DNA of 59,586 nucleotides, the filler included, from Dugesia japonica (taxonomy: Eukaryota), in NCBI GenBank assembly GCA_001938525.1. It is 5 parts of 5 records of this genome, joined end to end, with 100 filler letters (N's around TTAATTAATTAA, not from the genome) between each part and the next. Parts side by side here need not be neighbours in the genome. Positions count along the whole stretch, not along the records: positions 1 to 18,850 come from MQRL01547875.1; 4 more parts are not named here. One strand, 5' to 3'. The position numbers and the translations under genes are program-made. Every line of letters starts with the position of its first letter. The first letter of the stretch is position 1. This document shows, piece by piece, positions 11,486 to 14,096 of the stretch. Below the pieces are notes generated by a model. That model ran no database searches and was not told where the DNA came from. It saw only the letters and a program-made list of their open reading frames with translations.

Positions 11486-14096
11486 ATGAATAAGTTTGGA
11501 GAAAGTTTATCCACTGTAAATAGTTCACAATTAATAAAACATGTTGATGCTAAAATTAGAATCTCAAATGCAGAAAATGATAATAAATATGTAAATAAAA
11601 CAGGTGATACAATTACATGTTTAAAAATAACAGAAGAACCTAAATATTTACATGGTGCAGTTAATTTACAATATATAAAACAACTTGAATTAAAGATTGA
11701 TAATATCTTAATTAAAAATTGTAATAAAGAAACATTTGATAAAATAGATTATGACATCAAAAGATTAAAATCAGAANTTTTTCCATTTAAAAAAATTGAT
11801 TTAATGATTAATTTAAAATAATTAGATTCTAATGATATAAGTAAAATTAAAAACGAAATTGAAATATTAAATAATAAAATTAATAAATTAGATGATGATT
11901 TAGATAAGAAAACTTTTGATTCACACATGGTGCTCATTAATACAATTAAATTAGATATAGAAAAATTTAAACCTATAATTTTAAATTTGGTTGAAGAAAT
12001 TAAAAAAGTGAAATTAAGACAACACAAATTTTATAGTAATAGAATTGATGTTTTATTTAAAACTTATAAAGAAACACTTTCAAATTCACCACTTGAAGAT
12101 TTGAGAAATTTAATTAATAATTACTTACCTTATGTTTTCATGTTTAGTACTTATAAGATATTTTCAATTATCTATAAAGAAGGTGATCTTCCTCATTATT
12201 CTCTTTTAGATAAATATGATAATGATTTTAATTTAAAAAGAAAAGTTAAAATTCTAAAATCTGTTATTTTACATATAAAATTAAATGAAGAAATTGGTGT
12301 AGATATATTAGATTTTTGTAAAGATGAAAAATTTAGATACACCATTAAAATTAATAATATTCGAAAAGAATTTTTATATGAAAAATCTGAAGATGATAAT
12401 TTTCAGATTTTTCATAAGAGCACAGAAATTAATAAAGATGTAAATATAAATTATATTGAAATAATTTTACCAGAAAATATTAATATGACCAACTTAAGTG
12501 TTAATATATGTAGATTAGAATTTCTTGATCAATTAAGAAAAGAATTTGAATCGGTTAAATCAAAATTTCACAAATTACATATTGACAGAATGAATGTTTT
12601 ATTTAAAACTTCAAATATAAAAGTTATAAGAAAAATGCTTATTAATTATTTTACTCATGTTTTTTTGCCGGCTTATAATACAATATTAACAATTACCTGT
12701 TATGACAAAGATGAAGCTAATCCACAATTTTATATTAGTGATAAATATGTAAATGGTTTTGATTTTAAAGGTAGAGTAGGAAGAATGGAACTTATGTCAG
12801 ATAATAATTATTATGTACACCTTTCTAACCCTTTATCTATTATTTTACATACTAACATTAATGAAAAAGTTTTTATATATATTGAGGGTTATTGTCTATT
12901 CGAAAAATTTCTTTACATCATTAAAATTAATAATATTCCAATAGTAATGGAATATATTACACCTAACGCTAACAGAATAGTAATTTATCGTGAAAGCACT
13001 GAAATTAATAAAGATACAAATATAAATTACATTGAAATAATTTTACCAAAAGAAATTTATTTAAATAGTTTAATCATTAAATTACATAGATTTAAAATTT
13101 ATGATGAATTTGAAAGAATAAAACCAAAACTTCATAAAATACATATTGATAAAATAAATTTATTATTTAAAACTAATTCATTAAAAGAAATAATTGATAA
13201 TTACATACCTTATAGTAATACACCTACTAATGAAATATTTTCAANTATAAATCATCAATATTCTTTTATGGAAGAATATGTTAAGAGTATAGATTTTAAA
13301 AGAAAAAGTGTTTTTTTAGAAACAAACATTAATAGAAAAAATATATATATATATATAAAAGGCTCTTGTTATATTAAAAGATTTACATATGTCATTATAA
13401 TTAATCAAATTACACAATCAATTATTTATATAACACCTAAAGATAATAATTTTAAAATTTTTATGAAAGCACTGGAATTAATCAAGATACAAATATAAAT
13501 TTTATTGCAATAATTTTTCTACACGAAATTAATTTAAATAGTTTAGGTATAGATTTTGTAAATAAAGATTTTGAAAGAATAAAATTAAAACTTCACAAAA
13601 ACATGTTGAAAGAATTAATGATTTATATAAAACTAAAAATCCAAAGGGTGCACAAGAATTAATTGATAATTACTTGCCTTATGTTAATATACCTAGTGAC
13701 AATATAAAATTTTCAATTTTCTATTATGGAATTAAAAGTGATCTTCCATATTTTACTGTTGCGGATCAATATGTTAATAAATTAGATTAAAAGAAAAGGT
13801 GAAATGGTTGAAAAAGATTTCTATCTTAAAGAACCTTTTTCTATTTTTTACATACAAACATTAATAGAAAAATTAGTGTAAATGTAGAAGGTTATTGTGT
13901 AATTGAAAAATTTACATACACCATTAGAATTAATCATCTTGCAGTATCATATCAATATTTAAAACCNNNNNNNNNNNNNNNNNNNNNNNNNNNNNNNNNN
14001 NNNNNNNNNNNTAAAGATAAAAATATAAATTATATTGTAATAATTATACCAGAAAAAATTTATTTAAAAACTTTAAGTGTAAAATTTATTGTTTAA
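11486..14096 (+). pseudogene. Large fibre/spike-like protein with four tandem ~150-190 aa repeats
   Basis: ORFs 11486 and 11927 share a frame (premature TAA at 11819). N-terminal YVNKTGDT..EPK..HGAVNLQYI fibre-like motif, coiled coil, then repeats continuing through frameshifts to TAA 14094-14096. Confidence 0.6.

Follow-up and report, generated by a model that had tools for sequence, protein, structure and literature searches.

A decayed gene with four helix-plus-jelly-roll repeats, probably that of a virion spike, in a Maverick/Polinton-type element of Dugesia japonica

A stretch of 59,586 nucleotides of Dugesia japonica DNA, made up of five parts of assembly GCA_001938525.1 joined end to end and called the window here, contains a gene built around four diverged tandem repeats (Table 1). 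This repeat gene is a pseudogene, which once coded for protein and is now broken. It combines an N-terminal piece, a heptad stalk and four units that each consist, according to a structural model, of two helices followed by a jelly-roll sandwich. By the sequence matches of its neighbors (pPolB, A32 ATPase, PLA2-integrase and a DJR fragment) it sits inside a decayed Maverick/Polinton-type element. The gene probably encoded the virion attachment spike, or fibre, of an endogenous, adintovirus-like Maverick/Polinton element, and the spike would have carried multivalent heads.

The repeat gene, 11486-14096, is 2611 nt long, which is indivisible by three. The longest open piece (11822-13498, 558 aa) follows an in-frame stop at 11819-11821. 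The coding frame shifts near 13460, at 13575-13600 and at 13830-13850, and there is a stop in the coding frame at 13788. Two single Ns (11777, 13245) and one N gap of 45 nt (13967-14011) lie within the gene. The present copy is unable to make the full-length protein. An earlier sequence-only reading had proposed an intact protein of ~870 aa, but this figure is the span divided by three and is contradicted by the stop at 11819 and the frame breaks from ~13460 on. A 26-28-nt tandem duplication at 11785-11847 spans the stop. The core genes beside the repeat gene are broken likewise.

Table 1. Features of the repeat gene and of the surrounding element, in window positions
Feature	Position	Strand	Remarks
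Degenerate repeat array, strand-asymmetric	5035-6330		left end, sub-terminal-type region
Protein-primed family B polymerase (pPolB), several pieces	6666-8804	+	DNA_pol_B_2 E 4.4e-5; Endonuclease_7 E 3.7e-5
Putative penton (minor capsid)-like gene	10200-11045	+	internal stop at 10740; N gap
Putative adenain-like protease gene	11081-11452	+	His...Asp...Gln/Cys order; 33 nt upstream of repeat gene
5' piece of repeat gene	11486-11821	+	111 codons, ends in stop; putative capsid-anchoring N-terminus
Heptad-rich stretch, putative coiled-coil stalk	11822-12001	+	leads into first helix of repeat 1
Repeat 1	12002-12547	+	182 codons, open
Repeat 2	12548-13111	+	188 codons, open; unit modelled (two helices, then a jelly-roll sandwich)
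Repeat 3	13112-13574	+	shortest; frame change near 13460
Repeat 4	13575-14096	+	breaks at ~13788 and 13830-13850; 45-nt N gap at 13967-14011; stop 14094-14096
A32-type packaging ATPase	15915-16613	-	Pox_A32 E 4.8e-9
Integrase C-terminal piece	16849-17268	-	assigned by eye
PLA2-like domain plus rve integrase core, one frame	17290-18246	-	Phospholip_A2_4 E 1.1e-8; rve E 7.2e-11
Putative double-jelly-roll (DJR) major capsid gene, 3' part	18247-18850	-	DJR-like_dom E 0.0018; N gap from 18851

The sequence-only reading had placed four diverged repeats near 12002, 12548, 13112 and 13572, and these were borne out by comparison of the DNA itself, the last one starting at ~13575. All six repeat pairs gave local DNA scores of 113-170, compared to maxima of 38-50 for codon-shuffled sequences (200 shuffles each). 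The repeats are 36-46% identical in amino acids over 124-164 aligned codons. A repeat finder independently reported two three-copy families (D16 and D17) at the repeat region. Eight motif patterns were written after the earlier description of the repeats; six occur in all four repeats and the other two in three of the four. The exceptions are repeat 1, which deviates in the first helix, and repeat 4, one element of which would sit in the N gap. The gene ends with repeat 4. Tryptophan is absent from repeats 1 and 2, which have 11 and 15 tyrosines, respectively. No second copy of the repeat gene is present within the window.

The repeats diverged while they were coding. Repeats 1 and 2 differ at ~30% of bases and are free of stops over 370 codons. 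Simulated neutral drift of 370 codons produced a mean of 12 stops at 15% divergence and 21 at 30%, and the fewest stops in 300 runs each were 5 and 12, respectively. Substitutions between repeats are conservative (mean BLOSUM -0.07 to -0.43, vs. -1.3 when shuffled), and third-position GC is 10%. Since the repeats stayed open and conservative as they diverged, the duplications predate the decay of the gene.

Codon models were applied to the six repeat pairs under two frequency models and for two sets of columns, of which the "gap-free" one had been picked by eye; the final 12 columns of the alignment were excluded. Omega ranged from 0.18 to 1.10. A value of 1 was rejected in only two of the six pairs, in both cases towards purifying selection: repeats 1-2 (omega 0.32-0.41, p 0.014-0.024) and repeats 2-3 (omega 0.18-0.25, p at most 0.004). 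In none of the six was omega significantly above 1. Two capsid fragments of the window, treated by the identical method, gave 0.01; the heads are thus far less constrained than the capsid gene. A counting method had given dN/dS of 0.86-1.6, which was set aside because of the third-position GC of 10% and replaced by the codon models. Synonymous sites were, against expectation, unsaturated; of 67 identical residues, for instance, 8 used a different codon, compared to 24 expected. The low constraint among the repeats lends partial support to the "variable" spike of the sequence-only reading. Since only two pairs reject omega = 1 and none exceeds it significantly, relaxed constraint fits as well as diversifying selection does.

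Ahead of the repeats, where a coiled coil had been noted earlier, there are heptads. Hydrophobic residues occupy 7/8 a/d positions at residues 113-140 and 8/8 at residues 148-175, counted in the best of seven registers without a shuffle control. The 5' piece carries a tail-fibre-like motif at residues ~27-44. Twenty-nine phage records match the N-terminus, all on this one motif, and 20 of them are labelled tail fibre; the matches have E values of 1-9, none significant, come from about three phage groups, and include nine records with no fibre label. The resemblance of the N-terminal motif to phage tail fibres is therefore suggestive, not significant: the fibre labels agree with the fibre-like motif of the sequence-only reading, and the matches themselves are weak. 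Neither a signal peptide nor a membrane segment is present. The maximum 19-residue hydropathy of the 5' piece is 0.48, and a hydrophobic segment above 1.44 is absent from all five gene pieces, which would fit the spike of a non-enveloped particle.

The stop at 11819 is real and is followed by an ATG at 11927, as would be expected of two genes, a short ORF for a fibre anchor (11486-11821) and another gene that carried the repeats. Alternatively, the region could be a functionless host insert or DNA duplication, some of whose breaks might be assembly errors; there are 31 N runs across the window, and a near-duplicate capsid stretch hints at collapsed assembly. Against these readings, the heptads continue in frame from the stop to the ATG (7/8 a/d positions), which favors one original gene. 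The openness of the repeats at ~30% divergence, the conservative changes between them and the third-position GC speak for a coding past, and the adjacent core genes show equal breakage. Readings of this kind are very improbable.

The decayed Maverick/Polinton-type element extends from about 5035 to 18850, ~13.8 kb. Its ends, where terminal inverted repeats and a target-site duplication would be expected, adjoin N gaps and ATT microsatellites, and near 19 kb there is no counterpart of the left-end array. The best inverted match of this array (2875-3231 vs. 5200-6300, ~68%) lies to its left instead of at the right end. The DNA_pol_B_2 match is on one piece of the polymerase, at 23 bits and under the cut-off of 25.8, and the DJR-like_dom match, to the 3' part of the gene only, has 18 bits, under the cut-off of 27. 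The core gene set agrees with the lists in the accessible parts of two papers (PMC10748475; PMC8502044). Directly upstream of the repeat gene and on the same strand are two genes without a significant database match. From their motifs we take the first to be penton-like and the second to be an adenain-like maturation protease. The contextual grounds for a spike are the matches to pPolB, A32 ATPase, rve, PLA2 and DJR on either side of the repeat gene and its place behind the presumptive penton and protease genes.

Several other features of the element were observed. A zinc-finger-like start, a parvovirus-type PLA2 and the rve core share one 318-codon open frame at 17290-18246 (-), which may be a fusion or an artefact of decay. 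The PLA2X gene has been described as having a pX-like tail (PMC8502044, in part). The stretch 18776-18850 near-duplicates 18529-18600 (85% DNA identity) beside the N gap, perhaps because two copies were collapsed in the assembly. A small ORF at 8895-9287 (+), with no database match, has a glycine/alanine-rich amphipathic stretch and a short motif repeated three times; presumably it is akin to the PW/cupiennin-like genes of Mavericks. Downstream of the repeat gene, at 14144-15900 (+), are several unassigned ORFs, one of which carries a 48-nt tandem repeat together with an acidic tract (15103-15337).

Elsewhere the window, with a GC content of 19-36% by 2-kb block and ATT microsatellites, contains what is left of another Maverick-like element, richer in GC, at 20214-21926 (+) (A32 ATPase E 4e-7, rve E 8e-5) and the capsid-gene fragment used as selection control at 48705-48959 (+), which is 52-54% identical to 18247-18624 and has three stops. 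A decayed LTR retrotransposon occupies 35132-38915 (-), with reverse transcriptase (E 1.6e-22), RNase H, integrase and gag-like ORFs. A host gene for pyruvate dehydrogenase kinase is represented by exons at 53150-56439 (-) (E 4e-22 to PDK2 structures, and a HATPase_c match), with an insertion of ~30 residues relative to PDK2. An intact 266-aa ORF at 40644-41444 (-) has a hydrophobic N-terminus and probably encodes a secreted host protein; it had no Pfam match better than E 0.04. Rfam gave no matches in the window.

The fold of one unit was predicted for repeat 2, with the remaining repeats supplied as alignment (a four-repeat alignment). The model has a pLDDT of 70 and a pTM of 0.64, with pLDDT 80-90 over most of residues 101-170. 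Helices are predicted at residues 2-20 and 24-34 and eleven strands between 45 and 181, and the jelly-roll sandwich comprises ~140 aa. This model, and fold matches that are exclusively jelly-rolls, agree with the helical spacer plus beta-sandwich head proposed from the sequence. AlphaFold applied to two repeats without an alignment gave a pLDDT of 34, and this model was discarded. A homotrimer prediction of repeat 2, which used neither the repeat alignment nor controls, scored 0.00 and is evidence neither way.

A search of 48,161 PDB representatives with the model returned three at Z 8 or more; the matches align over residues ~42-185, and all are jelly-roll sandwiches. Highest was the D3' domain of the iota/CDT binding components (Z 8.2-9.0, rmsd 3.6-4.8, 117-123 residues aligned, 14-16% identity). 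TNF/C1q-like heads followed at Z 7.0-8.2 (GITRL 8.2, BclA head 7.9, EDA 7.7 and the PRD1 vertex spike P5 7.4, the last with rmsd 3.5 and 111 aligned), then an archaeal-virus triple-jelly-roll turret protein (4ind; Z 7.2, rmsd 4.3, 123 aligned) and CBM modules (Z about 7; 6.7-9.0 with rmsd 2.8-4.8 Å for the galactose-binding-like/CBM range as a whole). Intracellular jelly-rolls also match, namely the HECTD3 DOC domain (Z 6.6) and doublet-microtubule proteins (Z 6.5-6.9). A further fold search agreed with this mix. Foldseek found CBM29/6/35 among its PDB matches (E 3e-4 to 3e-3, TM about 0.35), and its matches to viral models included phage tail proteins and proteins with collagen repeats or C1q domains; its TM-scores were 0.2-0.4 overall. 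Adenovirus knobs were not among the fold matches listed, which says little against a knob-like fold. According to the search tool, models that lack a clear match usually reach a best Z of 7-8, and the 9.0 obtained here is barely above it. Because the lectin/CBM-like and TNF/C1q-like folds tie at Z 7-9, no family was assigned. We conclude from the model that the repeat head is a jelly-roll sandwich, a shared fold that does not indicate a function. CBM modules have an exposed aromatic binding site and often a structural calcium; classical sugar-binding platforms usually contain tryptophan, and its lack from repeats 1 and 2 is unusual for them.

These matches weigh on the reading as a spike from both sides. 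The top ones are mostly extracellular binding modules, but they are weak (best Z 9.0, rmsd 3.5-4.8 Å) and speak for a shared fold rather than a function. In a different reading the protein was non-structural, an intracellular accessory scaffold whose sandwiches bound host proteins of, e.g., immune or ubiquitin pathways and whose coiled coil served only to oligomerize it. Jelly-rolls of the same shape do occur inside cells, in HECTD3 and on doublet microtubules. The repeat gene closes the run of plus-strand core genes, ahead of the unassigned ORFs, and accessory regions with diverse ORFs have been described in Mavericks (PMC8097293, in part). Against an accessory role are the N-terminal motif, with its mostly tail-fibre matches (20/29), the penton-like and protease-like genes directly upstream, and the mostly extracellular nature of the top fold matches; we regard it as unlikely. 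Stacked jelly-rolls might instead have decorated the capsid as a turret that stabilized or shielded the vertex, with no receptor recognition. The matches to the turret protein 4ind and to PRD1 P5, and the penton-like gene nearby, are consistent with such a role. The low constraint among repeats is better suited to a host-facing surface than to lattice contacts, and each modelled unit places ~35 helical residues between heads, so that there is only a slight chance that it was a decoration protein.

Searches for relatives of known function found none, which counts against the spike. With the 558-aa piece, 0 of 8000 scored candidates were homologous, and with the N-terminal piece 0 of 148 longer proteins. 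PDB sequences gave no match to the repeat profile or to the N-terminus, tblastn of phages with repeat 2 none, and in GTDB genomes 0 of 80 candidate stretches were confirmed. Pfam families matching repeats 1 and 2 were likewise lacking at E up to 1, the C1q/TNF signature included. Three candidates were rejected. The single match of the repeat profile among 1.84 billion representatives (P0001), which we take to be a tandem-repeat protein with a globin-like unit, was spurious, six weak stretches adding up. Pfam crAss001_48 (E 2.4e-4) reached 21.4 bits vs. a cut-off of 24.8, with no single stretch passing, and phrog_21264 (E 0.001) covered only 22 residues. In the Atlas, repeat 2 was closest to unnamed bacterial clusters (0.90) and DUF7024 (0.89), a lead only, as the recognition score is below the reliable range. 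The penton-like neighbor, as a control, was likewise missed by the word-index search (0/369), so that the absence of relatives is weak evidence of novelty. The domain that the sequence-only reading called unrecognized matched no family in the libraries tried, and the gene stands, as far as tested, amid a viral gene cassette and outside host genes. It is possible that the repeat head represents a domain family of its own, a new one.

The nearest known counterparts are fibres with tandem binding domains. Fibres of PLVs carry up to seven laminin-G repeats, and also collagen and S74 chaperone domains (PMC12220804, in part). The D. japonica gene resembles them in being a long modular gene of a polinton-type element with an array of sandwiches, here four, and a proposed multivalent attachment. 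It differs in that helical hairpins join the units and in that its host looks to be an animal, in contrast to the protist host of PLVs. There was no Pfam match of the repeat gene to Laminin_G_3, collagen, avian-fibre or Peptidase_S74. Porcine adenovirus 4 (PAdV-4) is an animal virus of the same wider lineage. According to the accessible text of two reports, its fibre combines a shaft of triple beta-spiral with a knob and a tandem pair of galectin domains (PMC3562239; PMC3386624). The N-terminal anchor, the stalk and the tandem C-terminal sandwich domains are shared features, whereas the D. japonica protein has a heptad-helical stalk and four units. No gene piece had a Pfam match to adenovirus shaft, knob or galectin.

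PRD1 P5, BclA and C1q/TNF proteins bear one terminal head each. The repeat head is comparable to theirs (PDB 1yq5, 1wck, 1rj7; Z 7.4-8.2, rmsd 3.4-3.8, 110-113 aligned), as is the stalk-plus-head design; identity is 7-14%, and unlike these proteins the repeat gene has four tandem heads and no collagen stalk. The galactose-binding-like/CBM modules, including D3' of the clostridial binary toxins, have the top fold scores (Z 8.2-9.0). In the model, the likeness to D3' is confined to this small binding sandwich; pore-forming and enzymatic parts are missing, and the gene is not a toxin gene. CBM modules differ further in that there is no sequence match and in the lack of tryptophan in repeats 1-2.

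With adintoviruses and animal Mavericks the element shares genes for pPolB, an integrase, a packaging ATPase and PLA2, a putative capsid gene, and its state as a degraded germline copy; it differs in having PLA2 in one frame with the integrase core, and no four-headed spike is described in the accessible part of that account (PMC8502044). "Fiber" is a gene label in animal adintovirus maps (PMC8502044, supplement, in part). Fibre-like proteins have been reported in PLV particles (10.1101/2022.07.28.501842) and in oomycete Polintons (PMC10748475), in both cases according to the text accessible. The word "fiber" does not occur in the accessible text of a vertebrate Maverick survey (PMC8097293) or of a further paper (10.64898/2026.10.13.758929). 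In the literature, mainly open papers, no four-headed helix-plus-jelly-roll spike was found for an animal Maverick.

Gene context, architecture and the weak motif match together suggest a receptor-binding role. The spike protein, which has no signal peptide, would be synthesized in the cytosol and would be located on the virion, its N-terminus docking at the capsid vertex, presumably at the penton. A helical, probably oligomeric stalk would project the heads, and the four diverged sandwiches would bind ligands, glycans or proteins of the host surface, multivalently. Internal duplication could have raised avidity, and divergence of the heads under weak constraint could have broadened or shifted binding. 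The PLA2 domain of the element might then help entry. It is conceivable, though doubtful, that this is an animal Maverick spike of an undescribed design, with a helical stalk, four tiers of a new jelly-roll family and a different ligand for each head.

Tandem binding domains on fibres are already known in PLVs and in one adenovirus, and the value of the present copy is limited in that it is a pseudogene whose function is inferred. An attachment spike bears on whether animal Mavericks form infectious particles; according to the accessible text of one survey, such particles have so far been unobserved (PMC8097293). A purely intragenomic transposon would hardly be expected to carry so elaborate an attachment protein, one that diverged while coding, and the protein would therefore argue for an extracellular stage in this lineage. 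If it is real, the four-tier spike would be a concrete candidate for the receptor-binding protein of elements whose virions are unseen, and would link PRD1 P5-like heads to the spikes of animal polintons. Since repeats 1 and 2 survive as intact natural domains, they lend themselves to expression and ligand screens, so that host recognition by these elements is testable.
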